Positions 1-61,439 of a stretch of DNA of 64,000 bases are shown piece after piece (position 1 is the stretch's first letter; each line of letters opens with the position of its first letter). Both the position numbers and the translations under genes were made by a program. The DNA comes from an uncultured Candidatus Babeliaceae bacterium (GTDB taxonomy: Bacteria; Babelota; Babeliae; Babelales; Babelaceae). The notes below the pieces were generated by a model that was not told where the DNA came from, made no database searches, and saw nothing but the letters and a program-made list of their open reading frames with translations. The stretch covers positions 736,001 to 800,000 of the forward strand of contig OY969927.1 of the NCBI GenBank assembly GCA_963704655.1. Direction: 5' to 3'.

Positions 1-406
1 ATAGTTTTGCAAACAAAAATACAGGAACTGCTGAAAGGCCGCCAGTAGAGACTACTTTTTCTGGATGCGTTTTTATATATAAAAAAAGCAATTTTGCAAA
101 AGCAAATGACCACACTGCTGCATGAAACGGGAACAGCCAGAATTTTTTGCGCTGAATATCTGGCAAATATAATGGGCAGTGAGTTAACCGTGCATGGTGA
201 GTGCCGTGCCCTTCGATACATTCACCTATCGGTGAACACTCAGGGTGCACGGTGTATCGAACCATCGCACTATCAATAATTTTTTTATCTAATGGACGGT
301 GCGTAGTGATAAACACCGCAGGTGCACCAGCCTGATGAGCAAGGGTAATTAAAGGCATAATATGGCCAGCAGATTTACCGCCCACATACCAAATACTTTT
401 ATTCAT
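1..406 (-). CDS. murG: MurG-like glycosyltransferase, 5' part (runs off window start), with a 26-codon repeat insertion
   Basis: Not in the ORF track. My translation from ATG 406 gives MNKSIWYVGGKSAGHIMP...HPEKVVSTGGLSAVPVFLFAKL, matching the MurG GGxxGH and PDxVxxxGG motifs. ATGA overlap with the upstream gene stop. Confidence 0.85.
   Translation of the reverse strand, partial: MNKSIWYVGGKSAGHIMPLITLAHQAGAPAVFITTHRPLDKKIIDSAMVRYTVHPECSPIGECIEGHGTHHARLTHCPLYLPDIQRKKFWLFPFHAAVWSFAFAKLLFLYIKTHPEKVVSTGGLSAVPVFLFAKL
188..265. repeat. Family A palindromic repeat, nested (copy within copy), in frame in murG
   Basis: ccgtgcatggtgagtg[ccgtgcccttcgatacattcacctatcggtgaacactcagggtgcacgg]tgtatcgaaccat; 78 bp. 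Confidence 0.9.
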
Positions 407-849
407 AATGTATCTTTACAACGTTGATAATAGGCAAGTAATGAATCTTGCAGCTCTTTATTAGCTAATTTTTGAACGGTTTTTAAAGCCTGTAAACTCG
501 GCTTTCGTGGTGCAGATTGATGCTCTATTTTTTTTTCCTTTGGTGCGCTTTGGCGCACTATTTTCATAACCCAAATACAGCGAATCGCTGTGAGCGTAAA
601 CCCTTCTGGGTAAAGTTTATATAAAGCACTGTTCATGCGCTGCAACATCATGCGGGATAATGCATGCAATTCATGCATCCAATGGCTATCATAGACTCCA
701 ATAATAACGGTCGAGCCATTAATTCGCTCAAGACGAGCACGGGTTGAAAGATCACCCATAATTGTTGACCATTCAGCTCGCAATTTCATTTGCCAGTCGT
801 GCTCAGTGCGTGATAAAATTTGATCAACTAAACTTGTTATTGGTTTCAT
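403..849 (-). CDS. DUF721/DciA-like protein
   Basis: W..IMG.L......L......V.IGV.DS.W..EL pattern; size and position next to holB. Confidence 0.65.
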   Translation of the reverse strand: MKPITSLVDQILSRTEHDWQMKLRAEWSTIMGDLSTRARLERINGSTVIIGVYDSHWMHELHALSRMMLQRMNSALYKLYPEGFTLTAIRCIWVMKIVRQSAPKEKKIEHQSAPRKPSLQALKTVQKLANKELQDSLLAYYQRCKDTL

Positions 850-855
850 AAGATA

Positions 856-1581
856 TTAGTTTAACAAACAAGAAAGATTAAGGTACACATTTCGCCAGAA
901 AATCTTACCACTTCCCGGCATAGGCAACTTTTCTAGACAACTATGCAAATAGTTTACTACCGGAAAATACGCACTATTTTTTAAACTTTCTTGCGTCCAA
1001 AAGGTAATAATATCATCAAGTAAAAGGCGTGATTCATAATCTGAAATTTTGGTGCGATCAAGCTGCTGATGAAACTGAATAATATCAGCGATATTTTTTT
1101 GGGTTAACAGACTAAACATCTCACGATACCCATTATCCTGAGCGTCTGACTTAAACTCAGTAACAACACAGCGGGATTTAACCGTTGGCAGAAATTCCTG
1201 CGGCCGATCGGTCAATAATAGCCAATGCCAACCTGCAGGTGGCTCTTCAAGTAATTTTAATAAACTATTGGCGCATGCATCTGATAGCTTTTCTGCTTGT
1301 GTTATCACACAAAAGAATGGTTCGCCTTGTGCGCGGACAATTGCTATTTTTGAAAAAACAACATCCAAATCCGCACGCGAATAGGTTGATTTAATAGTTG
1401 AAAGAATCATATAAGCATGAAACTGCTGATTTTCAATCTGCTTACAGATAGAACAACTTTTACAACCAAGTGAACGACAATATTCCCTTTGCACCAGCGC
1501 AACAGCCTGCGCTTTTAAAATATTCTGTGAACCGGTCCATAATTGTGCAGGGCTAGTTCTGGTTAATGCGCTATGATTCAT
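856..1581 (-). CDS. holB: DNA polymerase III delta' subunit
   Basis: CxxxGCxxCxxC zinc motif, ANSLLKLLEEPP, LPTVKSRC. Start moved to ATG 1581, just after the tmk stop. Confidence 0.9.
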   Translation of the reverse strand: MNHSALTRTSPAQLWTGSQNILKAQAVALVQREYCRSLGCKSCSICKQIENQQFHAYMILSTIKSTYSRADLDVVFSKIAIVRAQGEPFFCVITQAEKLSDACANSLLKLLEEPPAGWHWLLLTDRPQEFLPTVKSRCVVTEFKSDAQDNGYREMFSLLTQKNIADIIQFHQQLDRTKISDYESRLLLDDIITFWTQESLKNSAYFPVVNYLHSCLEKLPMPGSGKIFWRNVYLNLSCLLN

Positions 1582-1582
1582 A

Positions 1583-2206
1583 CTACTTTTTAAATCGCTT
1601 GTTAAGTTCAGCAAGAACTTGTATTGCCAATTCTGTTGGAGGCAGATGTGCATCAACCGTTAAAACATTATCTTTCGTAGCAAAAATCTTTTCAAAACCA
1701 TCAATAACACGCTCAAAAAAAATAGTTTTTTCACGTTCAAAGACGGTTAAAGCCTCATGCCGTTGCGCGATTCGCTTAAAAGCAGTTACCGCATCAATTT
1801 TACTATAGACAATAAGATCAGGGGTTATTCCCTGCATAACCCACTGGGTAACCCGTTCAATAAGGTTAAGATCGATCTCGCGACCATAGCCCTGGTACGC
1901 TCGCGAAGAATCTGCCATGCGGTCAGACAAGATGATTTTACCATCTTCTAATCCGGGCTTAATCACCTGCGTAATATGCTCTGCGCGGTCTGCCGCAAAA
2001 AGCAAGAACTCTGCTTGGGGAGTGAGCGTATATTCATGAACAATCGCTCTGATTTTCTGCCCAGCAGGAGTGCCTCCCGGCTCTTTAGTTAAAATTACCG
2101 GCACATGCAGCGCCTCTAGAGACCTAAAAACAAGCTTACTAAGCGTGCTTTTGCCACTACCATCTATGCCTTCAAACGCGATAAGAAATCCAGATTTTTT
2201 TTCCAT
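1583..2206 (-). CDS. tmk: Thymidylate kinase
   Basis: FEGIDGSGKST P-loop, TKEPGGT, LLFAADR, SDR, AYQG. Confidence 0.97.
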   Translation of the reverse strand: MEKKSGFLIAFEGIDGSGKSTLSKLVFRSLEALHVPVILTKEPGGTPAGQKIRAIVHEYTLTPQAEFLLFAADRAEHITQVIKPGLEDGKIILSDRMADSSRAYQGYGREIDLNLIERVTQWVMQGITPDLIVYSKIDAVTAFKRIAQRHEALTVFEREKTIFFERVIDGFEKIFATKDNVLTVDAHLPPTELAIQVLAELNKRFKK

Positions 2207-2449: not shown

Positions 2450-2463
2450 ACTGCGGCGCTCAA

Positions 2464-2522
2464 ATGGTTCGATTTCACTCACCACGAGCGGCCGCTCGCC
2501 CTGAGCATAGTCGAAGGGTGCG
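2464..2522. repeat. Family A inverted doublet, intergenic
   Basis: atggttcgatttcactcaccacgagcgg + ccgctcgccctgagcatagtcgaaggg. Confidence 0.9.
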
Positions 2523-2532
2523 AAAGAGTATA

Positions 2533-4077: not shown

Positions 4078-4090
4078 AAAATTACCCCAA

Positions 4091-4151
4091 CACTTCGACT
4101 TCGCTCAGTGTGAGCGGCCGCTCGTGGTGAGCGTAGTCGAATCCATGGCGG
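4091..4151. repeat. Family A inverted doublet, intergenic
   Basis: cacttcgacttcgctcagtgtgagcgg + ccgctcgtggtgagcgtagtcgaatccatg. Confidence 0.92.
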
Positions 4152-4164
4152 CAGCGAGTACATC

Positions 4165-7662: not shown

Positions 7663-7666
7663 AATG

Positions 7667-10875: not shown

Positions 10876-10923
10876 TACCCTGTTTTTTCCTAGTAAAGTC
10901 TTGTTATGCCGCAAAATTTTCTT

Positions 10924-11043
10924 CGCTAATCCCTCGATCCAGCTTCCGACTACGCCGAGGCTTCGACGGACAGGCAGGATGCACTGAACTGGCCTGCCAT
11001 CTGTAGCTTGCCAAGCCGGAAGGCCTGGATAAGCGAAAGATGG
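10924..11043. repeat. Repeat cluster 3' of tRNA: family A copy interrupted by family B (10945-10974), plus a second family B copy (10993-11043)
   Basis: Reverse complement gtgcatcctg[cctgtccgtcgaagcctcggcgtagtcgga]agctggatcgagggattagcg; and cctgccatctgtagctt...aagcgaaagatgg. Confidence 0.85.
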
Positions 11044-12769: not shown

Positions 12770-12794
12770 AATTGTCTTTATACACACAACTTAC

Positions 12795-12830
12795 GGCCGC
12801 TCATCCTGAGCTCGTCGAAGGGTTAAGCGG
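12795..12830 (+). repeat. Family A single copy, intergenic
   Basis: ggccgctcatcctgagctcgtcgaagggttaagcgg. Confidence 0.92.
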
Positions 12831-12834
12831 CATT

Positions 12835-14070
12835 ATGATAAAATTCATTCACACAGCAGATATCCATTTCGGGATGGAAAATTATGGCAAGATCGACCCA
12901 AAAACGGGTATCCATTCACGCCTAATCGATTTTCAAAAAGCATTGCATGAATGCATCGACCGAGCGATAGCTGAAGATGTAGATTTTTTTATGTTTTCTG
13001 GTGATGCCTACAAAACACCAAACCCGTCACCAACGCATCAGAGGCTTTTGAGCGAATGCTTTTTTAGATTATTTAAGCATAATATTCCTATCGTTATGGT
13101 AATAGGCAATCACGACCATCCACTGACATTTGGTAAATCACACGCACTTGAAATATTTGGGCAACTGCCACTTGAAGGGTTTCATGTTATCAGCAAGCCA
13201 GAAAATATTTTACTGCAAACAAAAAATGGGCCCGTTCAGATTACGGGCATTCCGTGGCCGACGCGCGCACAAGTGAGTTTATCACATGAGCACCAAAGCA
13301 GAACAGCAGCACAACTTACTGAACTTATCAGCAATGGCATTGCAGATATTATAAGAAACTGCGCAGAGAAACTTAATCCAGAAATTCCAGCAATTTTAGC
13401 CGGACATTTAACCGTCAGCTCAGGGATATTTTCAGGGTCTGAAAAGCGTGCCGTATATGGCAATGACCCTGTTTTATTACCGTCACAACTTGCGATAGAA
13501 CCCTATGAATATGTTGCATTGGGCCATTTACACCGGTACCAAAATTTAAACCCAAATGCGCATCCGGCAATTGTTTATTCTGGCTCTATAGAGCGCATAG
13601 ATTTTGGTGAACGCAAAGAAGAAAAAGGGTTTTGCTTAGTAACTATTCATGAAAAAAATAATACAACACATGAATTTATCAAAGTCACTACGCGCCCATT
13701 TATACAAATCGAAATCACCCTTAACGATGACTCAAGTCACACAGAACAGATATTGGCTGAGCTGCGTAAACACCCTATTGCCAATACTGTGCTTAAGATC
13801 GTCTACACACTTCCAGCACATATTAAAGACCGTGTTGATGCACATGTCATTCATAATGCCTGTGAATCTGCACATTATATTGTAGGCATATTCCCGATTC
13901 GCCCTATAATAATTAAAGAATCACGCGCTGCACTTAAAGTTGATATGAATCTGCAAGAGCTTATGCAAAGTTACTGTTCAACAAAGCCTGAATATGCGCC
14001 GCTACAAGACGATATGATCAAAAAAGCACTTGAACTTGCCCATGAGCTTGAACAAGAAGAACATAATTAA
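12835..14070 (+). CDS. sbcD: SbcD/Mre11 nuclease subunit
   Basis: IHTADIHFG, SGD, GNHD, ALGHLH, YSGS. Start at ATG 12835, after the repeat. Confidence 0.93.
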   Translation: MIKFIHTADIHFGMENYGKIDPKTGIHSRLIDFQKALHECIDRAIAEDVDFFMFSGDAYKTPNPSPTHQRLLSECFFRLFKHNIPIVMVIGNHDHPLTFGKSHALEIFGQLPLEGFHVISKPENILLQTKNGPVQITGIPWPTRAQVSLSHEHQSRTAAQLTELISNGIADIIRNCAEKLNPEIPAILAGHLTVSSGIFSGSEKRAVYGNDPVLLPSQLAIEPYEYVALGHLHRYQNLNPNAHPAIVYSGSIERIDFGERKEEKGFCLVTIHEKNNTTHEFIKVTTRPFIQIEITLNDDSSHTEQILAELRKHPIANTVLKIVYTLPAHIKDRVDAHVIHNACESAHYIVGIFPIRPIIIKESRAALKVDMNLQELMQSYCSTKPEYAPLQDDMIKKALELAHELEQEEHN

Positions 14071-16921: not shown

Positions 16922-16940
16922 AGAACTAATTACCCTTGAA

Positions 16941-19840: not shown

Positions 19841-19851
19841 GTGCCGGTATA

Positions 19852-20313: not shown

Positions 20314-22682
20314 CGAACAGTTACTCCTAAGGCATGAACAGCTGCAGTAACCGCAGCGCGTAACTGGTCAATCTCTTGTTTAGAAAAAGTTTTTTCTTCA
20401 TCAACTGCTTTATAACGTAACGTTACTGCACGCTCAGAAACCCATTCCGGTTTTTCAAAGTAATCAACCAACTGCACGTGATATATGCGTGCGTCTACCA
20501 CCGCTATTGCTTGCTCAATTGCATCAACTGAAACGGCAAATGGCACGAGTAAACTGATATCTGTAGTAACAGGCTGGTATGCTGAAAGCGGGGTGAATGT
20601 TACCAACTCTTTATGCGCTTGTAATAATACATCAAGTTCAATTTCAAAAATAAACGCATGGCCCGTAGTAAATGCACGCATGCTGTCTGGCCTTACACAA
20701 CCTGCATAGCCGATAACTTTATCATTAAAAACTAACTCTGCTGTTTGATGCGGATGATAGAACACAGCAAGGTCAGATTCAGGCTTTCTCCAAACTATTG
20801 GCAATGAAAGTAACTTAAAGATTTGAGAAACTTTTTCTTTATATTCATAAAAATTAAGCTCAGTTGCTTGATACCAAATACCTGCAAAAGATGATTGTTC
20901 AACTGGTTTATTATTAATTTTTTTCCAAATATTATTTATCTCAAAAAATGCCATACGGTCATGTTCATAGACATTTTGTTCAATATTTTTAAAAAGATGT
21001 GGAATCAGTGACGAAACTAAGCTTGTCCAATGTTCTGAAACGGGGTTTGCAACAGCATAAGCCGTATCGGATAAAAGTTTACTCAAACCCACTTTTTCTA
21101 AAAATTGATTATCATAAAATGCATAGTTACTTACTTCATGCATGTTAAAACCAAATGCACACAGGCGCTTAAGCGCACGACGCATCATAATATAATCGGT
21201 AGAAAATGGCTTCATAACCCGCGAAGGCAATTGCATTGCAAGATTATTAAAGCCGATAAAACGCGCAATCTCTTCAACAATGTCCTCTGCGATAGTAATG
21301 TCTTTTGTTGCGCGAAAACTTGGCACGCTTATCGTGAACTCTGCACCAGTAGCAGTGTCTTTTTGTTGTACGCCAAAGCCCAACGCACTTAAGATAGTGT
21401 AAATATGATCTGCAGAAACATGAGTTCCAATACGATCAGAAACAAACGTCTGCGTAAAACGTATACTTTTTTCTTGAGGAACTTCACCAAGCGACATAAT
21501 TGCTTGCGCACTTTGATAGACTACATCATGGATATCTAAAAGATGTAAAAAGCGTGTTATAGCTTGCGTGTTATATAAAGGATCGAGTGATTTTTCAAAT
21601 CTTGTGGAAGACTCTGTACGGACCTTATGCTTAATTGATGATTTACGGATAGCTGCTGCAGCATATGATGCCGATTCAATAAAAAGCGCGGCTGTTTTTC
21701 TGGTTACACTAGAACCTTTACCGCCCATAATTCCTGCAAGACCTAAAATCTTTTGGCCATCACTGATAACCATATCAGTATCAACTAAGGTAATAGTTGC
21801 ACCATCAAGAAGTAATAACTTCTCACCCGAGGTTGCTTGCTCGACCTTAAGAACATCGCCTGTAATATATGCAGCATCAAATGCGTGCATTGGTTGGCCG
21901 ATATCATACATAACATAATTTGTAGTATCAACAATGCCATTTATAGGCTTTGCATCAATGGCACATAAGCGAAAGAGCATATCGGGAAATGAGGCAACAT
22001 AGGTGATTTTCGGGATACTTAAGCCTGCTATGCGTTTGCAATTTCGCTCCCCGATCACACTGAGCGAAGTCGAAGCGTTCTCCAAACCGATGGTGTTGCC
22101 TGCAACAGCGGGCGTGCTTTGGGTGAACGAGCGTATCGCTTTTTGAGCAAATATATACTCTTCTGGCAATAATTCTAAGCCATAAAGTGCTCCAACTTCA
22201 CGGGCAAAACCTCTGTGTCCCCATAAATCTGGTCTATGCGTTAATGCTTTGTTATCAAAAGTTAAAATATAGTCCCATGCAGGGATCGCGCTTTTCCAAG
22301 CGCCAGCTTTTTGTGCTTCAGGCACCCAGACAGCAGGAACAAGACCATCTTTTTCAGCATGCAGGTCACGCAGCGAAAGATAGGTAAACATATCGCCCTG
22401 CTTGAGTATCAAACAGCTGTCACCAACAGCCAGGTCTGTACGCGGGGGTAAGGTGATCTCTTTATGTAACTCGACAATTGAAAGCGTACAAGCGGTATCT
22501 TGTTTAATAACAGTACCTAAAAAAATCTTATCTAATGGATAGGTAATTTTTTCAACATGTTCTACTTCAGCAACAGTAGCTCCGATACGTTCAAAAAAGT
22601 TGCCCTTTTCAAACTCAGACTGAAACTCAGAAAATGGGTTTTTCTTAATATGACTAAACAACCAAGAAAGAGATAGCTTCAT
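20310..22682 (-). CDS. pheT: Phenylalanine-tRNA ligase beta subunit
   Basis: HRPDLWGHRGFARE, GQPMHAFD, GIMGG, STRFEK, EEIAR. Confidence 0.96.
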   Translation of the reverse strand: MKLSLSWLFSHIKKNPFSEFQSEFEKGNFFERIGATVAEVEHVEKITYPLDKIFLGTVIKQDTACTLSIVELHKEITLPPRTDLAVGDSCLILKQGDMFTYLSLRDLHAEKDGLVPAVWVPEAQKAGAWKSAIPAWDYILTFDNKALTHRPDLWGHRGFAREVGALYGLELLPEEYIFAQKAIRSFTQSTPAVAGNTIGLENASTSLSVIGERNCKRIAGLSIPKITYVASFPDMLFRLCAIDAKPINGIVDTTNYVMYDIGQPMHAFDAAYITGDVLKVEQATSGEKLLLLDGATITLVDTDMVISDGQKILGLAGIMGGKGSSVTRKTAALFIESASYAAAAIRKSSIKHKVRTESSTRFEKSLDPLYNTQAITRFLHLLDIHDVVYQSAQAIMSLGEVPQEKSIRFTQTFVSDRIGTHVSADHIYTILSALGFGVQQKDTATGAEFTISVPSFRATKDITIAEDIVEEIARFIGFNNLAMQLPSRVMKPFSTDYIMMRRALKRLCAFGFNMHEVSNYAFYDNQFLEKVGLSKLLSDTAYAVANPVSEHWTSLVSSLIPHLFKNIEQNVYEHDRMAFFEINNIWKKINNKPVEQSSFAGIWYQATELNFYEYKEKVSQIFKLLSLPIVWRKPESDLAVFYHPHQTAELVFNDKVIGYAGCVRPDSMRAFTTGHAFIFEIELDVLLQAHKELVTFTPLSAYQPVTTDISLLVPFAVSVDAIEQAIAVVDARIYHVQLVDYFEKPEWVSERAVTLRYKAVDEEKTFSKQEIDQLRAAVTAAVHALGVTVR
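22051..22079 (+). repeat. Family A copy in frame in pheT
   Basis: ccgatcacactgagcgaagtcgaagcgt, near-identical to the reverse complement of 4091-4117. Confidence 0.8.
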
Positions 22683-31067: not shown

Positions 31068-31552
31068 ACACTATTACGATAACGGTAAACACGAATATAA
31101 GAAAATGCTGAAACGGGGGTAGTTAATGCGTACTGTTCATATCCGTCTGTTATATACAGTGTTCCAGACTGTAACGTGCCATCAGGATGCGCACCTATCT
31201 TTTTATCTACAAAAGTAACCATTTGTGTAACAAGCTTTTGTGGTGAAGATGGCGGCCCATATACATCAGGTAATACCCCAAATCTAAAACCATCTTGCAA
31301 AGCATAACGACTGCCGTCATATATTAATGCTGAATTTACTTCATCAATAGTAATTTTTTGCTCTTTTTTTAAGCACGTTGCACGTGTTGCCGCAGTACGC
31401 AGCAACAGGCTCAACACAGCAACATCAGTAGCAAAAGAAGTGCCCTTAACGACATTATAACTTATAAATCCGATTGTAGAACAAACAAGTATTAACGTTA
31501 TTACCAGCATCAACTCAAACAGCATGAACCCTTGTCTGGCCATTCGAGCCAT
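31052..31552 (-). CDS. Type IV pilin / T2SS pseudopilin-like protein
   Basis: MARMARQG|FMLFELMLVI prepilin motif. Its ATG overlaps the upstream stop (TAATG). Confidence 0.85.
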   Translation of the reverse strand: MARMARQGFMLFELMLVITLILVCSTIGFISYNVVKGTSFATDVAVLSLLLRTAATRATCLKKEQKITIDEVNSALIYDGSRYALQDGFRFGVLPDVYGPPSSPQKLVTQMVTFVDKKIGAHPDGTLQSGTLYITDGYEQYALTTPVSAFSYIRVYRYRNSVWQSY

Positions 31553-32044
31553 TATTCGATTCCCTCTTGCGAAACTATGAAATCTGCATCGCAGCCGCTC
31601 GTGGTGAGCGTAGTCGAATCCATGCGGCAAGATTCTTCATTTTTGAATCCACCCCAACCATTACGTATTAATATCTCTTTTTTCTGACGCGTCCAGCGCT
31701 TTATTTTATGCTCTGCCACAAATGCCTCATCGCGTGTTTGAAATAACTCAAAATATTTTAATGTAACGGGTAGTCTATTTAATGTGTAACCCTTATACTT
31801 GCCTTCATTATGTTCGCATACCCTTTGTTCTAAATTATCTGTATGCCCAATATAATAAGAACCATCAGCACATTGAACGATATAAAAATAAAAACCTTCA
31901 TTCATGATTTACCAAATTTTTTTAGGCCGCATGGATTCGACTACGCTCACCACGAGCGGCCTGTTAAAGTGATTTTATTATAGATAAATTACAATTAATA
32001 ATTTTCTGTCTTGGTAGAAAAACATTATTCGATTCCCTCTTGCG
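31550..32044. mobile_element. GIY-YIG cassette with 35-bp inverted repeats (31594-31628, 31926-31960) and 22-bp direct repeats (31550-31571, 32023-32044)
   Basis: IR gccgctcgtggtgagcgtagtcgaatccatgcggc, exact inverse at the other side; DR cattattcgattccctcttgcg twice. Mobility is inferred. Confidence 0.8.
31552..31905 (-). CDS. Small GIY-YIG nuclease (UPF0213/YhbQ-like)
   Basis: YFYIVQCADGSYYIGHT...R..EH...YT..R.P......E......A...E..IK.W.R.KK. Confidence 0.93.
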   Translation of the reverse strand: MNEGFYFYIVQCADGSYYIGHTDNLEQRVCEHNEGKYKGYTLNRLPVTLKYFELFQTRDEAFVAEHKIKRWTRQKKEILIRNGWGGFKNEESCRMDSTTLTTSGCDADFIVSQEGIE

Positions 32045-46135: not shown

Positions 46136-48697
46136 ATGGAAAAAAAGTACGATCATCAGATTAATGAACCTAGAATAAAAGCCTTTTGGCACGAAGATGC
46201 CACCTACACCCTAGCACCTGAACAACTAGATGATCGACCTCTTTTTAGTATAGACACTCCCCCGCCTACCGTTTCAGGCTCACTACATATTGGCCATATA
46301 TTTTCCTATACGCATACCGATCTAATCGCGCGCTATAAGCGCATGAGCGGATACGCCGTATTCTATCCATTTGGCTTTGATGATAACGGGTTGCCCACAG
46401 AGCGCTTTGTTGAAAAAAAGAAAAGTATTACGGCTTTTAGCGTGGGCCGTTCAGAATTTATTAAACTCTGTCTTGCAGAAACGGTTGAAGTTGAAAAAAA
46501 ATTCCAAGATTTGTGGCAGACTATCGGCCTTTCAATCGATTGGAACCATTGGTATTCAACCATCGACGCACGAACACGCAAAATCTCACAAGAATCGTTT
46601 ATCGATTTATATAGTAAAAAATATGTCTATCGCAAGCAAGAACCGGCACTTTATTGCACCACTTGTTACACTTCTGTAGCTCAAGCAGAACTTGATGATG
46701 CAGAAAAAGAAACATTCATGACCACTATCGCCTTTACCGGCGCCGATGGTTCGGTGTTGCCTATAGCAACAACACGTCCAGAATTTTTAGGCGCATGCCT
46801 GGCAGTTTTATATAACCCAGAAGATGGCCGTTATAAGCATTTAAAAGGCACCGTTGCAAGCGTGCCACTTTATGGAACTACCGTTCCGTTATTGCCCGAA
46901 GAAACGGTTAAAATAGATAAAGGCACTGGGCTTGTTATGTGTTGCTCTTTTGGAGACACTACGGATATTGAATGGATCAAAAAACTTAATCTCACCATTA
47001 AGCCAATTTTGCAAAAAGATGGCCGCTTTCAGGCTGATTTAGAGTATATTGGTGGCCTAAAAGTTAAACCTGCCCGTGAAAAAATTCTTGCTGAACTTGC
47101 AACACAAAATTTGATTATTGAACAAAAGAAGCTTGTTCATAATGTCAATATTCATGAACGCTGCAAAAATGAAATAGAGTTTTTAAGTTTACCGCAGTGG
47201 TTTATCGATATTAAATCACATAAAGAAGATTTTCTTGCTATGGGCCGCCAAGTTATGTGGCACCCAGAATATATGAAATCACGATATGACAACTGGGTAG
47301 AGCATATCAATTGGGACTGGTGCATTTCGCGTCAGCGCTTTTTTGGAATTCCGTTTCCTTGCTGGCACTGCACAACCTGCGGTACCGTTATTTTTGCAGA
47401 AGAATCACAATTACCGATAGATCCACAAGAAACACCTTACCATAAACCATGCCCGCAATGTGGCAGCACAGAAATTGTACCTGATATGGATGTTATGGAC
47501 ACGTGGAACACGTCGTCATTAACGCCACAGATTGCTGCAGAGATGTTTAAAAAGGCGTACCCAAAAACCCATAAAACGTTATTGCCGATGAGCATGCGCC
47601 CGCAGGCACATGATATTATCCGCACGTGGGCATTTGATACCATTGTTAAATCGTGGATGCGCGACAAACATATTCCATGGCACGATATTGTTATCTCTGG
47701 CCATGTGCAAACAAATGATAAACAAAAGATCTCTAAATCGCAGGGCAATTCACCACTTGAACCAGAAAACTTGCTTAAAACGTACCCTGCCGATGTAATT
47801 CGTTACTGGACCGCCGGTGCTCAGTTAGGAACAGACACCGCGTTTTCTGAAAACCAGTTTAAAATTGGCCAACGATTAATTGTTAAACTCTGGAACGCCT
47901 GTTTATTTATTAAAGAACATGGTACCCCGCTAACCCTTCGACAAGCTCAGGATGAGCGGGTCTTTAGTGCTGAGCATTCGTCGAAGCATCAGGATGAGCG
48001 AGGGGAGGCCGCTCGTGGTGAGCGAAGTCGAATCCATTTGAGCGGACTTGTAATCCCGCAGGACACCATTAATAAATGGATCTTGCACCAAGCGACAGAA
48101 ACATTTGGTGCCTATAAAAATGCATTTGATGATTACCATTTTCATAAAGCGCTTGAAAGTGTCGAAAAGTTCTTTTGGAACGATTTTTGTGATAACTATC
48201 TTGAACTGGTTAAAGATCAATTTTTCAACCCGGCAAACTATAGCCCAGAACTTATAGCAGAAACACAGGCCGTTTTATATAAAGTCGGTTTTGAATTGAT
48301 ACAATGGTATGCGCCGTTCTTGCCGTATATCACCGAAACCATTTATCAAGAATTATATAAAGAAAACTACAAAGTAACATCGCTGCACCAAACAACGTAT
48401 AGTTCAGAACATGACCATTATGATTATGTTCATGAAGTTAAAGTTGTTGAGCTCTTACTGCTGGCAGTACAGCACGTACGTAAAATTAAAACTGATGCTG
48501 CCGTATCGCTTAAAACAGATATCAAGCTTTTAACTATCCACTGCACCGCGGAGCAGGAAAAACAGCTTGCAACGGTTGAAAAAATATTAGCCGGTGTTGC
48601 ACGCGCACAAGAGATACGTTATACAACAGTAAAACTTGAACAAGAAGTTTCACTTATTGATAATCAGGGCATTTACTCAATGGTAATTGATTTATGA
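46136..48697 (+). CDS. valS: Valine-tRNA ligase (short, archaeal-like type) with in-frame repeat insertion
   Basis: DTPPPTVSGSLHIGH, DWCISRQR, PQAHDIIRTW, KISKS. Confidence 0.97.
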   Translation: MEKKYDHQINEPRIKAFWHEDATYTLAPEQLDDRPLFSIDTPPPTVSGSLHIGHIFSYTHTDLIARYKRMSGYAVFYPFGFDDNGLPTERFVEKKKSITAFSVGRSEFIKLCLAETVEVEKKFQDLWQTIGLSIDWNHWYSTIDARTRKISQESFIDLYSKKYVYRKQEPALYCTTCYTSVAQAELDDAEKETFMTTIAFTGADGSVLPIATTRPEFLGACLAVLYNPEDGRYKHLKGTVASVPLYGTTVPLLPEETVKIDKGTGLVMCCSFGDTTDIEWIKKLNLTIKPILQKDGRFQADLEYIGGLKVKPAREKILAELATQNLIIEQKKLVHNVNIHERCKNEIEFLSLPQWFIDIKSHKEDFLAMGRQVMWHPEYMKSRYDNWVEHINWDWCISRQRFFGIPFPCWHCTTCGTVIFAEESQLPIDPQETPYHKPCPQCGSTEIVPDMDVMDTWNTSSLTPQIAAEMFKKAYPKTHKTLLPMSMRPQAHDIIRTWAFDTIVKSWMRDKHIPWHDIVISGHVQTNDKQKISKSQGNSPLEPENLLKTYPADVIRYWTAGAQLGTDTAFSENQFKIGQRLIVKLWNACLFIKEHGTPLTLRQAQDERVFSAEHSSKHQDERGEAARGERSRIHLSGLVIPQDTINKWILHQATETFGAYKNAFDDYHFHKALESVEKFFWNDFCDNYLELVKDQFFNPANYSPELIAETQAVLYKVGFELIQWYAPFLPYITETIYQELYKENYKVTSLHQTTYSSEHDHYDYVHEVKVVELLLLAVQHVRKIKTDAAVSLKTDIKLLTIHCTAEQEKQLATVEKILAGVARAQEIRYTTVKLEQEVSLIDNQGIYSMVIDL
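47927..48045. repeat. Family A composite (three units) in frame in valS
   Basis: ccgctaacccttcgacaagctcaggatgagcgg..tgctgagcattcgtcgaagcatcaggatgagcg..gccgctcgtggtgagcgaagtcgaatccat. Confidence 0.93.
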
Positions 48698-52036: not shown

Positions 52037-53344
52037 TCAAATATGCTGGATAATATCGCGCTGAGGGACTTTAACCTCAATACCTGTGGTCATATTTTTA
52101 ATAGTTGCCATGCCAGAGGCCTGTTCATCGGCCCCAATAAGAATAGCCCATTTTGCGCCCATTTTATCAGCAGCTTTAAACATACTTTTAATAGATGATT
52201 TATCTAAAATAATATCGGCACAGATATGTTCGGCATGAAGCATTTGCACAATCTGCAACCCTAAATTTCTTTGTTCAGCTGTTAAGGGAATAATAACTGT
52301 AAGCGCCGGTTGAGTATCATGACCAACTAAACTTTTTTGCGATTCAAGCAACAACTGTAACCGTTCAAGGCCAACAGCGGCACCGATAGACGGGTAGTCA
52401 TGTTTAGCCCCAATTTGCGTTGCAAGCGAATCATAACGGCCACCGCCACAGAAGGTGTTTTGCGCGCCCAAGCCATCAGAAGAAACAGAAACAAACTCAA
52501 AGACCGTTTTATTGTAATAGTCTAATCCGCGAACCAACGTCGGCTTAACAGAATAGGTTATAGAAAGTTCTTCAAGAATATTTTTTAGCTGTTGCCATTC
52601 AAGTGCAGATTCTTGTGCCATGGTATCAATAATAGTAGGCGCTGTTGCAAAGAGTTTGTGGCAGCTTTCCTGCTTGCAATCAAAAACACGCATAATATTA
52701 GTGTTCATGCGATGCTTACACAAATCACATAATTCTGTAATATGCTTTTCAAGAAACTTTTTAAGAACTTTTTGATATGCTGCACGGTCTTCACGCGTGC
52801 CAAGGTAATTGATTAAAAGAGCATAACCTTCAATTTTTAAAACATTCATAAAAAGGGCATCGAGCATCGCGATAAAAAGGGCATCCTGCAAAATTGAATC
52901 AGAGCCGATTATCTCCATGCTCATTTGATGAAACTGGCGATAGCGCCCTTTTTGTGGGCGTTCATGCCTAAATGCGGGCCCAACAGAAAAAACTTTCCAT
53001 GGCGTATCTTGAATGCCGGCATTAATAAATGCGCGCATAATACTTGCAGTAAGTTCGGGGCGAAGACACATTTTATCTGAATCGGCGCTAGCTGAATCGC
53101 CCCCCCGCTCATCCTGAGCTTGTCGAAGGGTTAGCGCAACGTCTGAAAGTACCCGATACATCTCCTTGCTGACAACGTCAGTTTCAAGGCCCAATGACCG
53201 CTTAAAAAGTTCAAGTGGCTCGATTAAGGGAGTGGATATTTCATGAAAATTATAATCCAAAAGATGTTTTTTTGCCTTTTGGATTATCCAATTATATAAA
53301 GAAAGATCAAGAAAATCTTGTGTACCCTTAATACGCGTAATCAT
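52037..53344 (-). CDS. hisS: Histidine-tRNA ligase with in-frame repeat insertion
   Basis: KGTQD, KEMY, LRPE.TA, FRHERPQKGRYRQF, RGLDYY, GGGRYD. Confidence 0.98.
   Translation of the reverse strand: MITRIKGTQDFLDLSLYNWIIQKAKKHLLDYNFHEISTPLIEPLELFKRSLGLETDVVSKEMYRVLSDVALTLRQAQDERGGDSASADSDKMCLRPELTASIMRAFINAGIQDTPWKVFSVGPAFRHERPQKGRYRQFHQMSMEIIGSDSILQDALFIAMLDALFMNVLKIEGYALLINYLGTREDRAAYQKVLKKFLEKHITELCDLCKHRMNTNIMRVFDCKQESCHKLFATAPTIIDTMAQESALEWQQLKNILEELSITYSVKPTLVRGLDYYNKTVFEFVSVSSDGLGAQNTFCGGGRYDSLATQIGAKHDYPSIGAAVGLERLQLLLESQKSLVGHDTQPALTVIIPLTAEQRNLGLQIVQMLHAEHICADIILDKSSIKSMFKAADKMGAKWAILIGADEQASGMATIKNMTTGIEVKVPQRDIIQHI
53105..53136 (+). repeat. Family A copy in frame in hisS
   Basis: ccgctcatcctgagcttgtcgaagggttagcg, exact reverse complement of valS 47928-47959. 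Confidence 0.95.
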
Positions 53345-53495: not shown

Positions 53496-55088
53496 ATGAA
53501 TTTCAAACAGTTAGGTTCTATAAGCCTACTTGCACTGACGGCGACCAGCAATATTTCAAGCTGGTATCAAGCAGTTTCAAGTAAAACTTATTATAGTAAT
53601 ATTCAATTGTGGGAAATTGGTAAACCAACCAAAGAAATATTCTTTAATACCGAACGCATGCAAGAACGTGAAGACGGCTGGTGCGGTGGATTTGAAATCG
53701 CAGGATATGGCGGTCAATCAACCAACTCAAGCAAACTTAATTCATACTTCATGCCTTATGGTAAATGTTCTTTAAATGTCATTGAAGGTATTCCATTAGG
53801 AACATCTCCTTGGGTTAACCCAGCAGATGGCACCACCAACCGCGATATCGAAGCACGTAACTTTAACATCGAAACAGTTAACGGCGCAAATGGGGAAGAT
53901 GGACAACAGTACATGGGTACCATCACCTTTAACCCTAAACAAACCATTGCCGGTGTCGGCTTCTGCTTTAGACAATCATTCTGGAAGGACCACCGCGGCG
54001 TACCAACAATCTGGGGCGAAATTTCATTCCCGGTTCAGTATGTAAAAAACGAAATGAACCTGTGTGAAAATGTCACCCAAACAGGCGGCGGCGCATCAGA
54101 CACTGTCGGTCTTGATAACTCACTTCACGTGGGCACCATGCAGGCTGCATTTGCACAAACAAACTGGCTCTATGGCAAAGTCGACAATAGCAAAGATCTC
54201 AGCACATGGGGCGTTGCAGATGTTGAATTACGCGTAGGCTATAACTCTATCAACACAGACTGCTGCGATTTGAATGCCTATCTTGGTGTGGTAATTCCAA
54301 GCGGAACAAAAATCGACCAATGCAATGCTGCATATATGTTTAACTCGGTAATTGGTAATAACCACCACGTTGGTATCTTATACGGTACACACTTTGGTTA
54401 TGAACTGTATGGCAAAGGCGATCATATGCTCCGCATGGAACTTGATATGTCAAGCAAATACCTTTTCTCTAACCACCAATGGCGTTCATTTGATTTAGTT
54501 GGTCAAGAATGGAGCCGTTACCTTGAAGTGTACACAGATGTAAACCAAGCAACTGCTGCTGATTCTGCAGTTCCACCACTTACTGTTAATAGTGGTACAT
54601 CTGGTATCAACGTCTTTACTCGCCGCTTACGTGTTTCACCACGTTTTGCAACCAATATCAATACCGCACTTAACTATTCATACAGATCAGTCGATTTTGA
54701 ATTTGGTTACAACTTATTCACCCGTCAAGCAGAAAAAGTTGAGTTCCCACGCAACTGTTGTGTCGATTTCCCACTTACTGTAGCGGTAAAAGATATTAAT
54801 GGTACTGGTGGCACAAATATTGCACGTACTATTAAAAATGATTTTGGCGGATCAGTTACAACTCTTGCAAACTATGCACAAAACGTTATTCAATTACCTG
54901 AATTGAATCTTGATTCTGCTGCGCACCCTGCATTAATCACCAACACTATTTATGGTGGCGTTGATTACAATACAGAATGCTGGACGGTCCCAATGTTCTT
55001 TGGTGTTGCTGGCATGTACGAATTTTGTAGCATGAACAGCTCGATTGACCGTTGGAACGTGTTAGGCAAATTCGGCATTACTTATTAA
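53496..55088 (+). CDS. Exported paralog-family protein (putative outer-membrane beta-barrel)
   Basis: Signal peptide, EARNFNI, NWLYGKVD, GNNHH, ends GKFGITY. Confidence 0.8.
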   Translation: MNFKQLGSISLLALTATSNISSWYQAVSSKTYYSNIQLWEIGKPTKEIFFNTERMQEREDGWCGGFEIAGYGGQSTNSSKLNSYFMPYGKCSLNVIEGIPLGTSPWVNPADGTTNRDIEARNFNIETVNGANGEDGQQYMGTITFNPKQTIAGVGFCFRQSFWKDHRGVPTIWGEISFPVQYVKNEMNLCENVTQTGGGASDTVGLDNSLHVGTMQAAFAQTNWLYGKVDNSKDLSTWGVADVELRVGYNSINTDCCDLNAYLGVVIPSGTKIDQCNAAYMFNSVIGNNHHVGILYGTHFGYELYGKGDHMLRMELDMSSKYLFSNHQWRSFDLVGQEWSRYLEVYTDVNQATAADSAVPPLTVNSGTSGINVFTRRLRVSPRFATNINTALNYSYRSVDFEFGYNLFTRQAEKVEFPRNCCVDFPLTVAVKDINGTGGTNIARTIKNDFGGSVTTLANYAQNVIQLPELNLDSAAHPALITNTIYGGVDYNTECWTVPMFFGVAGMYEFCSMNSSIDRWNVLGKFGITY

Positions 55089-55120: not shown

Positions 55121-56974
55121 ATGAAATCGATAAAAAGTTTATTAACCTTGTGGTGCTGCTTAATTGCAGCACCATTTGCACTCGATGCAAAGGTTCTGAC
55201 TACAGCGCAAGCTCAGGCAAACCTTGATACCGCAATTGCGGCATTTAAAAAAGATCAAACAAACCCAGCGCTTGCACAACAAGTACTTAACAGTTACGCA
55301 CCTATTCAAGGCGCTCAAATAAAAGCTAATGCTGATGCAAAACTTAAAAAAGAGCTGGGCAAAACTATTAAACAAGTAGAGCAAATAGTCACAGGAGCAA
55401 AAGCTGCTGAGATTAAAAAATCTACACCTGGAATAAGCACCTCTGATGCCGCAGCTGAAGCTGAGGTACAAGAAATTATGGTACTAGCAAAAAACCTTCT
55501 TGATAACTATGATGATCAAGGAATAAATTCTGCAACTTTAAATGATATTAATGAATATTATGCTGCATTAACCGAACTCAGCAAACGAATTGATGGCTCT
55601 CCTTACAAAGCTAAGCTTGCAGAAACTCAAAATAAACTTAATGCACAACTTTCTAAGGTAACAATAAGAATAGCAACACTTTCAGTGCCTGCGCCTACAG
55701 CAGCGCCTGCAATACCTGCAGGAGCGCCAGTAGCACCTCCAGCAGCACCTGCAGCAATACCCGCAGCACCTCCTGCACCTCCAGTACCAGCAGCAGCAGC
55801 TCCAGGAAAAGGCAAGTCTGATTATCAAATTGAACTTGCAAGAATAAAACCATTAGTTAAGGCTGCATATGATAAAGCTCTAGATGTAATCAAAAAATAT
55901 GAAACGGCTAACGCCTCCAACTTTAATCAAGGCTTAGGCTCAGTTTCAACTACACGATGGGCAACTCAGCTTGAAAAAGAAAATGCATTACAACTTATTG
56001 CTGAAGTCAAAAAACTTATCTCAGAAATAACTGCATTAGTTAATAAAGTTGACACGAAGTTCAACGGAAACTTATACGATATGATGCATACTAGCGATAT
56101 TTACATTGACTGCATCGTAAAAGCTGATAGAGACAAAGAAGCTGAGCAATGGAAAGAACAAAAAGCTGATTTACTCAGCTTTATTGCTAGGTACAATTCA
56201 GATGTTGCTGGAGTTGAAAAACTGGAAACCGCAATAAATGCATATACACCAAAAGGTACCATTCAGCGTCCTGAGATAATTAGCAAATACACCGAGCCAG
56301 CTCTTAAAAAAGTAGAAGATATAAACTCGTTATACAACCAAGTTTCCAAACTTAATTTTGTTACAAAATACTCAGTTACCGCATATGCTTCAAAAGACCA
56401 AACAGAAGAGGCTCTGAAAAAAATAGCGCAGATACGTAAGCTCAATGATGAAATACCTGTAATATTAGAACCTCTAGACAAAGCTAATGCTCATAAACCA
56501 TTTAATCAATTCTTAACAGGTGATTACTTCCGTAGTCTTATCACGGCAGATGAAAATCTACGTCCTGATGAATATAAACAACAAGAAAAAGAGCTCCAAG
56601 ATAAACTAAACACCTACGAAAAAGCAATGAAAGCACTTGATGGTTTAGAGAAAGATGCTAACCAACGCTTGCAAAATATTGCTGCTGATGAAGCTGCCAA
56701 AAAAGGCGCTCCAGTAGCACCCCCAGCACCTCCAGTAGCAACAGCACCAGCAGCGGGCAAAGTTACCGTTAAAGGCATTGAGGTCAGTGATGAAATGTTC
56801 AAAAGCGATGATGCTGCAGAAGTTTCACGTAAATTAGGTGAGCTAGCTGATGAAGATATAAAAGCGCATAAAGGACAAATTATAAAAGCACTAACCGATA
56901 AAATTAGCGCAACAAGTGACCAAGTTCAAAAAGAACTCATTCAGAAAGAATTAGCTGAAATTGAAAAAATATAG
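55121..56974 (+). CDS. Exported helical protein with Pro/Ala-rich linkers
   Basis: Signal peptide; two GAPVAPP-containing tracts. Confidence 0.8.
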   Translation: MKSIKSLLTLWCCLIAAPFALDAKVLTTAQAQANLDTAIAAFKKDQTNPALAQQVLNSYAPIQGAQIKANADAKLKKELGKTIKQVEQIVTGAKAAEIKKSTPGISTSDAAAEAEVQEIMVLAKNLLDNYDDQGINSATLNDINEYYAALTELSKRIDGSPYKAKLAETQNKLNAQLSKVTIRIATLSVPAPTAAPAIPAGAPVAPPAAPAAIPAAPPAPPVPAAAAPGKGKSDYQIELARIKPLVKAAYDKALDVIKKYETANASNFNQGLGSVSTTRWATQLEKENALQLIAEVKKLISEITALVNKVDTKFNGNLYDMMHTSDIYIDCIVKADRDKEAEQWKEQKADLLSFIARYNSDVAGVEKLETAINAYTPKGTIQRPEIISKYTEPALKKVEDINSLYNQVSKLNFVTKYSVTAYASKDQTEEALKKIAQIRKLNDEIPVILEPLDKANAHKPFNQFLTGDYFRSLITADENLRPDEYKQQEKELQDKLNTYEKAMKALDGLEKDANQRLQNIAADEAAKKGAPVAPPAPPVATAPAAGKVTVKGIEVSDEMFKSDDAAEVSRKLGELADEDIKAHKGQIIKALTDKISATSDQVQKELIQKELAEIEKI

Positions 56975-58382: not shown

Positions 58383-58406
58383 TATAACGTGCCTTTAATT
58401 ACTCAA

Positions 58407-58595
58407 TCCTTCGATACATTTTGCTTGCGCAAAACACTCAGGATGCACGGATTAAAGGCCCGCTCACCCAGAGTACTTCGATGCAGTTCATCCTGAGTAA
58501 AATAGTGCGTAAACGCACCAATCGAAGGGCTCAGTATAAACTTCGTCGAGTCGCCTGTCAGCCGCCGCTCATCCTGAGCCTGTCGAAGGGTTGCG
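58407..58595. repeat. Largest family A cluster (about four units, partly nested), intergenic
   Basis: tccttcgatac..actcaggatgcacgg; ccgctcacccagag..[ttcatcctgag..tcgaaggg]..gtcgag; gccgctcatcctgagcctgtcgaaggg. Confidence 0.88.
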
Positions 58596-58727
58596 CAGGC
58601 TGGAAAGGGTTGGGGATATATTGGTATTATAAGTATAAATTAGGGAGTTTTGACTAGAGGGCCATTCAGTTTCTTTAAAAGCTAGTAAAAAGTGTAACCA
58701 TATGTTCTAAAAAAAAAGGAAGAATTT

Positions 58728-60230: not shown

Positions 60231-60258
60231 AAAATCATACCCACAATTTAAAACCAAT

Positions 60259-60287
60259 GGGCTCGAGGATAACTCGGGCCCTTTTTT
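60259..60287 (+). terminator. Intrinsic terminator
   Basis: gggctcgag-gataa-ctcgggccc-tttttt. Confidence 0.85.
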
Positions 60288-60367
60288 AATACTTATTTTT
60301 AACGTACCCACACCCGATTCTCAGTAAGCACTTGTTTTTTATGTAAAGTCATTCTAAACTTCCGCTT

Positions 60368-61399
60368 ATGAAGCACACTATACTCGTTACCGGTGGCGCA
60401 GGGTACATCGGCTCACACACTGTCCAAGAGCTTATTGATCATAACTACCACGTAGTTGTAATTGATAGAACATGCTCTTTTGAAATTAATCACCCGAATA
60501 TCACCTATTTTCAATGCGATATAGCCGATACTCAAGCGGTAAAAACAATTTTAAATCATTACACCATTGATGCGGTTGTCCACTGTGCTGCATCAATAGA
60601 AGTCGGCGCCTCAGTAGTAAACCCTGCAGAATATTATGAGAATAATGTTATAAAAACTTTGATGCTACTCGATACGTTGCGTAAACAAGATATAAACAAA
60701 ATTGTCTTTTCTTCAAGCGCTGCGGTATATGGCATTCCACAACAGCTGCCTCTTAAAGAAACACACTCCTGCAACCCCATAAACCCCTATGGCAGAACAA
60801 AATATATTATTGAGCAGATATTAAGCGATTATCAAAAAGCGTACAATTTAGAATACGTAGCGTTGCGTTATTTTAATGCGGCCGGCGCTTGGCCAGAATA
60901 TAATCTGGGTGAACGGCATGAACCAGAAACACATCTTATCCCGCGCATTTTACAAGCAGTTTTAGATAATAAAAAATTCACACTTTTTGGCAATGACTAC
61001 GAAACTCCTGATGGCACGTGTGTACGTGATTATGTGCATGTACGCGATATTGCACAAGCACATAGACTCGCGTTGGAATTTTTATTTAATAAACATAAAA
61101 GCGCAATTATCAATTTAGGAACAGCTCGTGGATTTTCAATTCAAGAAATTATCACCAGTGTCGAACAGGTTACTAAAAAAAAGATCGCCATAAAACATAT
61201 GCCACGCAGAGCGGGTGACCCTGCTTATCTTATTGCCGACAATGGCTTGGCGCATGAACTTTTAGATTGGCGACCATTACATAGTGATATCACCAGCATT
61301 ATTGCCAGCGCATATGAATTTTATATACAAAAATCTCATAAAATAGTTAATATACGGCCGTACAATGCGTCCGCTAACCCTTGCGTAGGCTCAGGATGA
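60368..61399 (+). CDS. galE: UDP-glucose 4-epimerase
   Basis: GGAGYIGSH, FSSSAAVYG, YGRTK, LRYFN, DGTCVRDYVH. Confidence 0.97.
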   Translation: MKHTILVTGGAGYIGSHTVQELIDHNYHVVVIDRTCSFEINHPNITYFQCDIADTQAVKTILNHYTIDAVVHCAASIEVGASVVNPAEYYENNVIKTLMLLDTLRKQDINKIVFSSSAAVYGIPQQLPLKETHSCNPINPYGRTKYIIEQILSDYQKAYNLEYVALRYFNAAGAWPEYNLGERHEPETHLIPRILQAVLDNKKFTLFGNDYETPDGTCVRDYVHVRDIAQAHRLALEFLFNKHKSAIINLGTARGFSIQEIITSVEQVTKKKIAIKHMPRRAGDPAYLIADNGLAHELLDWRPLHSDITSIIASAYEFYIQKSHKIVNIRPYNASANPCVGSG

Positions 61400-61439
61400 G
61401 CGAGCGTTTACTGCTGAGTCGAAGCATCAGGGTGCACGG
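61371..61439. repeat. Family A composite overlapping the galE stop
   Basis: ccgctaacccttgcgtaggctcaggaTGAgcg..tgctgagtcgaagcatcagggtgcacgg. Confidence 0.88.

Follow-up and report, generated by a model that had tools for sequence, protein, structure and literature searches.

A GAG/CGA hairpin repeat family and an associated small GIY-YIG nuclease gene in a Babeliaceae genome

The 64,000-nucleotide stretch analysed here (the window, i.e. positions 736,001 to 800,000 of contig OY969927.1, assembly GCA_963704655.1, from an uncultured Candidatus Babeliaceae bacterium) is a gene-dense chromosome segment of about 39% G+C. It harbours housekeeping genes (holB, tmk, rsmA, mreB, glmU, sbcD, pheT, murB, tgt, mraY, valS, ybeY, hisS and galE), a gene for a GspE/PilB-type ATPase and many open reading frames (ORFs) without a family match; the best named relatives of its HisS protein carry the labels Candidatus Babeliaceae, Babeliales and Dependentiae. 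Dispersed between and within these genes are copies of a hairpin repeat with a GAG...CGA core, and two of the copies enclose a gene for a small single-domain GIY-YIG nuclease. We consider it probable, from the analyses described below, that the repeats serve this nuclease, which would be of the Ssn kind, as cognate DNA hairpins.

Structure and covariation of the hairpin unit

The short form of the unit follows CCGCTC-R-NNN-T-GAG-C-N2-3-GT-CGA-A-N'N'N', in which N' denotes the complement of the variable bases and the loop comprises 5-6 nt. A covariance model (R1) identifies 17 short units in the window, accompanied by about six long units whose loop is replaced by a further hairpin (Table 1). 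The pattern GAG-TG-[6-bp hairpin]-TGTAT-CGA matches four long units, to which a second nested pair and half of a unit in murB can be added. When at least four flanking Watson-Crick pairs and a loop no longer than 30 nt are required, the window contains 12 GAG..CGA hairpins, compared to a mean of 1.75 (standard deviation 1.20, maximum 6) in 100 dinucleotide-preserving shuffles. Head-to-head arrangement is frequent, with the palindrome GAGCGGCCGCTC common to both partners, as seen for the pair upstream of the acyl-CoA ligase gene (2452..2531). In two cases (194-265 and 58474-58536) a unit is nested as the 'loop' of a unit of opposite orientation; the latter pair lies on the minus strand with its inner unit on the plus strand. 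Between tag and core there is complementarity as well, the conserved (C)GCTC matching GAGC(G) of the core, for example in the units 53102-53138 and 4086-4116.

The initial annotation had described stems that vary compensatorily around the core, and the examples it gave are all found: CCT-GAG..CGA-AGG at about 12803-12822 and 53111-53130, ATGGT..ACCAT at 194-265 (where the 56-nt 'loop' is an inverted long unit), ACACT..AGTGT at 4090-4111 (-), TGCT..AGCA at 47968-47988 and 61412-61426, and TCCC..GGGA at 16840-16875 (-). The loop hairpins TTCACC/GGTGAA at 209-245 (-), TTCTAC/GTAGAA at 16840-16875 (-) and TTTTGC/GCAAAA at 58406-58444 (-) are likewise present. A covarying outer stem had also been proposed. 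Its pairings GCCGC/GCGGC, CCGCT/AGCGG and CCGTGC/GCACGG do occur in the window, but outside this genome the same bases form a mostly unpaired tag.

Since the window copies fall into few subtypes, we used a scan across genomes, one genome per species, to analyse covariation. The pattern CCGCTCNNNNTGAGCN{2,3}GTCGAA fixed tag and core and left the stem free. This yielded at least 129 stretches and places the unit in at least eight phyla. The 80 titled loci among the matches listed comprise 37 from Chloroflexota (mostly Dehalococcoidia), 26 from Alphaproteobacteria (mostly Sphingomonadales), seven from Beta/Gammaproteobacteria, three from Acidobacteriota, two each from Elusimicrobia and Myxococcota, and one each from Desulfobulbaceae, Binatia and Dependentiae; being drawn from the matches listed, these taxon counts are not quantitative. 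A search of the 129 listed loci for long-type units (GAGTG..TGTATCGA) gave one match, probably by chance.

The scan fixed 17 bases of the unit, so that only the free positions count as evidence. At the three free stem positions 162, 154 (plus four G.T) and 145 (plus 12 G.T) of the 166 distinct copies with sufficient flanking sequence form Watson-Crick pairs, with the pair types CG/GC at the first, CG/GC/AT/TA at the second and TA/CG/GC/TG at the third position. Shifting the 3' partner by one base as a control lowers these numbers to 116, 65 and 21. In an alignment of 16 window units with 132 random picks from the 166 outside copies, 84.1% of the cells pair compared to 68.3% in shuffles; the covariation score of 0.403 (0.131 in shuffled alignments) was reached in none of 500 shuffles, and slid partners score at most 0.141. 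The compensatory variation is thus confirmed well above shuffles on a multi-genome alignment and reaches beyond the window. At the fourth stem position, purines on the 5' side combine almost independently with pyrimidines on the 3' side, and the position is therefore conserved rather than paired. The real helix consists of the three variable pairs, T:A, the G/A and A/G oppositions and G:C. The context 5'-T-GA-G/5'-C-GA-A is one favoured for sheared tandem G.A pairs.

Copies outside the scan pattern carry the tag CCG(C/T)TC. A 3' GAGCG partner of the tag is present in only 27 of the 166 copies. Among tagged copies with a perfect 3-bp stem we find 61 distinct GAG/CGA sequences and nine single-substitution variants of the core, each seen once. 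The core, previously called invariant, is therefore strongly conserved, but not absolutely so; within the window CGA has been lost in the unit at 61365-61411. The three covarying positions contain G.T/T.G in 16 cells and A.C/C.A in 7, which is weak evidence for strand specificity. Taken as a whole, the picture of a hairpin whose stem is maintained by compensatory change around a conserved asymmetric core is supported.

A GIY-YIG nuclease gene between inverted units

The GIY-YIG gene had escaped the initial annotation, as had the in-frame insertions described below. No other domain is attached to its ORF in Pfam. The true protein has about 90 aa; the mechanical ORF extends to 117 aa because its last approximately 27 codons read through the downstream unit and a duplicated pilB/gspE end. 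Close homologues measure 87-99 aa, and the residues Y8, Y18, G20, R28 and E65 of the catalytic core are invariant in 32 sequences. The best named relative comes from a 'candidate division TM6' genome, and the UPF0213 proteins 1ywl and 1zg2 in the PDB match with an E-value of about 1e-14.

The gene is located between the arms of a perfect inverted repeat of 35 nt (31594-31628/31926-31960, 100% complementary). Both arms are type-B units, the upstream unit being forward and the downstream unit reverse relative to the gene. An AT-rich leader, the first unit, the gene and the second unit are together bracketed by a perfect 22-nt direct repeat, which looks like a target duplication from insertion of the cassette. 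Long direct repeats were also sought around the GIY-YIG genes of three loci from other genomes (L046, L106 and L062), and none were seen. The cassette lies between a pilin-like ORF and the PilB/GspE ATPase gene (31052-33734), with a comF-family gene near (19202-19879). Since SsnA of Neisseria modulates natural transformation, this neighbourhood may not be accidental.

The association of gene and unit extends beyond the window. An iterative search of stop-to-stop ORFs in the 129 listed motif-selected loci identified GIY-YIG genes in three of them (L046, L106 and a decayed copy in L062), with units within about 100 nt and inverted arms of 28-42 nt around the gene. Units flank the gene in Sphingomonas, Novosphingobium and Methylobacterium records, and the same architecture is found in L046, L106, L062, L130 and L131. 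We also started from the protein, by tblastn of plasmid and chromid records; of 10 hits three were examined, and two of these have flanking units. In Sphingomonas parapaucimobilis the gene for a 'GIY-YIG nuclease family protein' has head-to-head short units upstream and a reversed unit downstream, while in Methylobacterium bullatum it is enclosed by two long units, each with a 6-bp hairpin as its loop.

This is further supported by the homologues themselves. An exhaustive profile-free search gave 8,851 cluster representatives when the threshold was E<=1e-3, and 1,439 when it was E<=1e-10. We scored SLSK/ELVE as peptide signatures of a forward unit and FDKL/RQAQ/STSS as those of a reverse unit. 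Such unit-encoded peptides are present in the N- or C-terminal extensions of 56 of the 167 nearest homologues (19 + 148), compared to a mean of 1.7 and a maximum of 6 in 200 residue shuffles; for homologues of at least 105 aa the count is 55 of 138. As a control, 3 of 119 HisS homologues carry unit peptides, in each case at the site of the HisS insertion. Downstream of the domain, 42 of 49 proteins have their first unit in reversed orientation, and upstream of it the closest unit is forward in 8 of 12, which matches the inverted arrangement in the window. This tight association with a small nuclease gene makes likely the role in protein recognition that had been suggested for the repeat from the window alone.

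In-frame insertions and signs of movement

Five of the 15 insertion sites in the window lie in frame in conserved genes that are still open, i.e. a glycosyltransferase-28-like ORF (with the nested units at 194..265), pheT, murB, valS and hisS. The pheT ORF (20310-22682, minus strand) continues through its unit. The ValS profile match covers 837 aa compared to 791 profile positions, which corresponds to about 46 extra residues and three units. HisS has 12+7 residues more than E. coli HisRS (1htt), including LTLRQAQDER, and MurB about 29 more than PDB 3tx1. The murB insert joins a repeat lacking GAG (24034-24075) to the 3' half of a long unit (24074-24106) with the TTCACC/GGTGAA loop hairpin. 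Relative to the mRNA, intragenic units point either way: valS has two sense units and one antisense, and those of hisS and pheT are antisense. Three of the six reading frames of the units are open. The two units at 61365..61426 overlap the 3' end of galE. The 42-nt repeat without GAG, GTGCAYCCTGCCTGTCCGTCGAAGCC..., is found in two copies (10943-10984 and 24034-24075) that are 93% complementary, the murB copy being the one fused to half a long unit.

To follow the HisS insertion among orthologues, 21 of 120 listed relatives were aligned. Extra residues at this site are present in only the eight closest (77-100% identity), several of which look decayed, and the more distant Dependentiae orthologues in the alignment have no unit insert. 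One orthologue carries a different unit-type peptide (MDSTTLTTSG) at the same site. In two orthologues of 87-92% identity there is an additional unit-like insert (…AHPERVEG…) at a second position, unoccupied in the window, and LRQAQ-type inserts at the first site are also seen in two distant relatives of about 54% identity; the relatives concerned are P0171, P0172, P0207 and P0280. Judged from these sequences, the first site could be an insertion hot spot, or the insertion there could be old. The presence and absence of units among HisS orthologues and the 22-nt direct repeat are signs of mobility.

Some further features of the window were noted. The tRNA-Ser(CGA) at 11041-11132 (-) is the sole Rfam match at gathering score in the whole window; the 5' end of a mechanical ORF (9586-11118) overlaps it, so the true start of this ORF must be further downstream. 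A protein encoded at 24804-26309 (-) combines eukaryote-like WD40 repeats with a C-terminal DnaJ domain. Three paralogous ORFs of about 510-530 aa (53496-55088, 61474-63006 and 63076-63999), with DNA identity of 63-76% over stretches, have no NCBIfam or Pfam match. The ORF at 55121-56974, also without family match, contains repeats of 9/12-nt periodicity rich in Pro/Ala codons (55697-55811 and 56711-56762).

Table 1. Hairpin units, repeats without GAG and the GIY-YIG cassette in the window.
Position	Strand	Feature	Context	Score or support
194..265	+	Nested long units; outer ATGGT GAG..CGA ACCAT, inner inverted 209-245 (-)		
2452..2531	- / +	Head-to-head short-unit pair (2452-2499 -, 2484-2531 +)		R1 29.3 and 41.6 bits
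4078..4157	- / +	Head-to-head short-unit pair (4078-4125 -, 4110-4157 +)	Intergenic	R1 35.0 and 35.8 bits
10943..10984	-	Composite repeat copy without GAG		Inverted-repeat pair I5 with 24034-24075
12789..12835	+	Single short unit	Intergenic, glmU/sbcD	R1 41.1 bits
16840..16928	- / +	Long unit 16840-16875 (-), loop hairpin TTCTAC/GTAGAA, beside short unit 16882-16928 (+)	Intergenic	
22043..22090	+	Short unit	In frame in pheT, antisense to gene	R1 30.3 bits
22714..22792		Head-to-head short-unit pair	Between divergent pheT and trhO	R1 33.7 and 41.2 bits
24021..24106	+	Composite insert	In frame in murB	Inverted-repeat pairs I5, I19
31550..31571		22-nt perfect direct repeat, downstream copy	Yields false ...SQEGIE* ORF tail	
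31552..31905	-	Small single-domain GIY-YIG nuclease gene		Pfam PF01541, E=6.1e-17, aa 5-76
31587..31634	+	Short unit	Just after GIY-YIG domain	R1 32.6 bits
31920..31967	-	Short unit (GTGGT..ATCCAT type)	Just upstream of GIY-YIG start codon	R1 32.9 bits
32023..32044		22-nt perfect direct repeat, upstream copy	Real pilB/gspE-type 3' end (...TTQEGIE*)	Spacing 473
47921..48048	- / + / +	Three units (47921-47967 -, 47966-48000 +, 48001-48048 +)	In frame in valS	R1 matches
53097..53143	+	Short unit encoding ..ALTLRQAQDER..	In frame in hisS, antisense	R1 48.1 bits
58406..58603	- / - / +	Long unit 58406-58444 (-), nested pair 58474-58536 (-), short unit 58557-58603 (+)	Intergenic cluster	
61365..61411	-	Decayed short unit, CGA lost		R1 20.8 bits
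61412..61426	+	Minimal unit TGCT GAG T CGA AGCA		

Comparison with known systems and possible explanations

The text of Chenal et al. (Nat Commun 2025, PMC11893778) describes Ssn proteins as single-domain GIY-YIG enzymes of about 94 aa (CDD cd10448) whose substrate is a hairpin repeat, the NTS (CGTCATTCCCGCGMAVGCGGGAATCYRG); binding and adjacent cleavage are restricted to single-stranded DNA (ssDNA) and to one of the two strands. It also reports ssn genes flanked by 'SRM' repeats in many phyla, and likens the arrangement NTS-ssnA-NTS to an insertion sequence. The cassette of the window shares with this system a protein of about 90 aa with a single GIY-YIG domain, a gene flanked by hairpin-forming inverted repeats of 20-50 nt, dispersal of the same repeat in many copies (17 short and about six long per 64 kb here), a repeat oriented by a conserved unpaired 5' tag, and occurrence across many phyla. 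In contrast, the hairpins differ in design. The NTS/SRM hairpin, as set out in the same text, is CGTC + ATTCCCGCG..CGCGGGAAT + CYRG with a fully paired stem, whereas the window hairpin combines CCG(C/T)TC, R, three variable base pairs, T:A and GAG..CGA with two purine-purine oppositions. They also differ in placement: 5 of the 15 window sites lie in genes, while NTS copies are stated to be rarely in genes, 2% in N. meningitidis (PMC11893778). Of the 167 nearest homologues, just one has a tail derived from the canonical NTS repeat.

The main text and the 10 spreadsheets of PMC11893778 do not describe the GAG/CGA unit, while its PDF supplements (glam2 run) may show other flanking motifs. Babela massiliensis, the only Dependentiae genome in its table, is scored there without SRM and without SsnA. 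In the text of a later preprint that names SsnA, its loci serve only as a benchmark. Literature searches on the unit peptides, 13-nt strings, Dependentiae palindromic repeats, tandem G.A with REP, and SsnA found no description of the unit. Five of the loci from other genomes (L006, L030, L041, L068 and L076) contain another repeat, GTC-ATTCY-GAG-loop-CGA-RGAAT-CT. By its sequence it may be a hybrid of a CGTC/NTS-type tag and a stem starting with AT with a GAG..CGA core, and hence a link between the two hairpin classes.

REPINs reportedly are short tagged hairpin repeats that often form inverted doublets. The doublets at 2452-2531, 4078-4157 and 22714-22792, which have counterparts in other genomes, the hairpin with a conserved 5' tag as in REPs, and the two nested insertions into the loop of another unit all resemble such elements. 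The units might accordingly be moved by another enzyme, such as a RAYT or IS200/IS605 Y1 transposase encoded elsewhere, with the GIY-YIG gene as a landing site or passenger. We regard this as quite unlikely. No Y1 transposase, and no transposase family at all, is found among 60 window ORFs searched with NCBIfam or 33 searched with Pfam, and a passive landing site would not predict an association of gene and unit across phyla with consistent orientation. To our knowledge, IS200/IS605 elements make no target duplication, whereas the cassette is bracketed by the 22-nt direct repeat. REP/RAYT and IS200/IS605 do have a repeat-flanked single-copy gene and repeats that are recognised in folded, single-stranded form (Ton-Hoang, Nunvar and He, cited via the text of PMC11893778), but the gene flanked here encodes a GIY-YIG nuclease and not an HUH/Y1 transposase. 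Nor do the units fit the REP catalogue as presented in the text of Di Nocera et al. 2013 (PMC3733652), which sorts REPs into superfamilies tagged GTAG and CGTC, the families covered including Neisseria dRS3 and Rickettsia RPE-4/RPE-6: neither tag is present. According to that text these REPs are, like the unit, tagged palindromes in many phyla, mostly head-to-head dimers, and some copies lie in genes, tRNA synthetase genes included, to which they add 20-80 residues. Compared by text description, the CGTC tag, the 8-9 bp stems starting with AT and the CCA tail of the CGTC families have no equivalent here (PMC3733652). The search described there dropped repeats with more than one stem mismatch, which would exclude the GAG/CGA core. 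The in-frame placement in conserved genes, with HisS orthologues that have or lack the insert, is also like that of the coding palindromes of the Rickettsia RPE type.

Alternatively, the units may act as RNA, i.e. as REP-like hairpins that stabilise, terminate or process mRNA or as small RNAs, with the GIY-YIG gene as a frequent neighbour. The excess of G.T (G.U) over A.C cells on the GAG strand (16 to 7) fits this explanation, many REPs have been argued to be transcribed (text of PMC3733652), and inverted unit pairs from other genomes (L128, L081, L115 and L106) match Rfam RF02901 (AaHKsRNA41, Aggregatibacter sRNA 41), whose model consensus has an inverted pair of GCUGAGCUUGCCGAAGC-type hairpins. 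These matches reach 20-40 bits (39.7 at most), well below the gathering score of 97, RF02901 is a species-level small RNA entry, and it has no match in the window; judged by sequence, a copy of the GAG/CGA repeat may underlie the entry. No Rfam family matches the units at gathering score, and relaxed searches of 47880-48080 and 20 loci gave only sub-threshold or chance matches (miRNA models, RF02901 and leader models). As the units also lie in both orientations relative to host genes, are not followed by a T-run, and accompany a family of DNA nucleases that in its studied members does not touch RNA (text of PMC11893778), an RNA function appears unlikely. Very improbable is a site on duplex DNA for a host protein (nucleoid protein, gyrase or regulator), with the stem symmetry stemming from a dimeric binder: the units are palindromic overall and very widespread, but their GAG...CGA centre is not palindromic and their arms vary freely while remaining complementary, which points to a folded strand rather than a sequence read on the duplex. 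The replacement of the loop by a whole extra hairpin argues in the same direction. Selection on an encoded peptide, as in coding palindromes, would explain the 5 of 15 sites in frame in conserved genes and the three open frames of six; we consider it hardly credible, given that most sites are intergenic, that the intragenic copies are read in differing frames and orientations (LRQAQDER, MDSTTLTTSG and PELVEG-type peptides), and that compensatory nucleotide change is not predicted by it.

We thus return to the repeats as probable cognate hairpins of the GIY-YIG nuclease. In the mechanism we propose, one strand of the unit provides the 5' tag CCG(C/T)TC, a stem of three compensating pairs and a fixed T:A, and the GAG...CGA core, which encloses a loop of 5-6 nt or an extra hairpin. 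When exposed as ssDNA, which would be its active form, this strand would fold, possibly with tandem G.A pairing in the core; the nuclease would bind by recognising shape, tag and core, and would nick nearby. The nuclease gene with its two inverted units would be the autonomous form of an insertion-sequence-like element, and the dispersed units would be non-autonomous copies mobilised by the protein. Such copies would accumulate between genes and also in frame in essential genes, at sites where an insertion leaves all reading frames open.

Several findings weigh against this assignment. Predicted DNA folding is unremarkable (z-scores -0.1 to -2.65), and for two of five units folded on the GAG strand the minimum-energy structure is a competing hairpin, GCTC-N5-GAGC. 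According to these models, the hairpin of tag and core may represent a second state of the unit or simply result from its internal repeat; since both its partners, GCTC and GAGC, are conserved, covariation neither supports nor excludes it. Covariation also cannot separate ssDNA from RNA or from cruciform extrusion. The SRM consensus HGTCWYN(0-2)YYVSBRHN(0-5)WNVSBRGN(0-2)RNCYNB matches neither strand of the window (50 block shuffles average 0.2 matches), and GTCGAA and TTCGAC are absent from the 10 spreadsheets of PMC11893778. The nearest solved structures of the GIY-YIG protein are labelled UPF0213, and yazA of B. subtilis matches it at 48% identity. The gene is present in only three of the 129 listed motif-selected loci, which is expected for dispersed repeats and weak by itself. 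In Sphingomonas paeninsulae (L132) the gene looks broken and has no units, and 111 of the 167 homologues are without a unit peptide, whose detection needs an ORF running into an open-frame flank.

Taken together, the best explanation is an Ssn-like cassette with a different hairpin design, in a new host lineage, with unusually frequent in-frame insertions and first hints of target duplication. A bolder version appears possible, although we hold it to be doubtful: the cassette would represent a new class of autonomous mobile element with a GIY-YIG 'transposase' of about 90 aa, a 22-bp target duplication, hairpin-only derivatives, recent activity in Babeliaceae (in frame in aminoacyl-tRNA synthetase and cell-wall genes), and a nuclease subfamily separate from SsnA with its own tandem purine-purine code across at least eight phyla.

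The Ssn enzymes were presented in 2025, in the text of PMC11893778, as the first site-specific nucleases that cut only ssDNA, and the recognition hairpin characterised so far is only of the NTS/CGTC type. The GAG/CGA unit would add a second hairpin design, found in many phyla, with free stems, two purine-purine oppositions and a matched nuclease subfamily. As a pair, hairpin and nuclease would offer a test of how a small protein reads DNA shape, and are a candidate new enzyme and site for ssDNA tools. The 22-bp direct repeat and the presence or absence of units among orthologues of 87-92% identity are the clearest hints so far that such cassettes move. As for the host, the insertions indicate that a reduced, intracellular-type genome can accommodate such hairpins in frame within its essential genes, a situation similar to that in Rickettsia.

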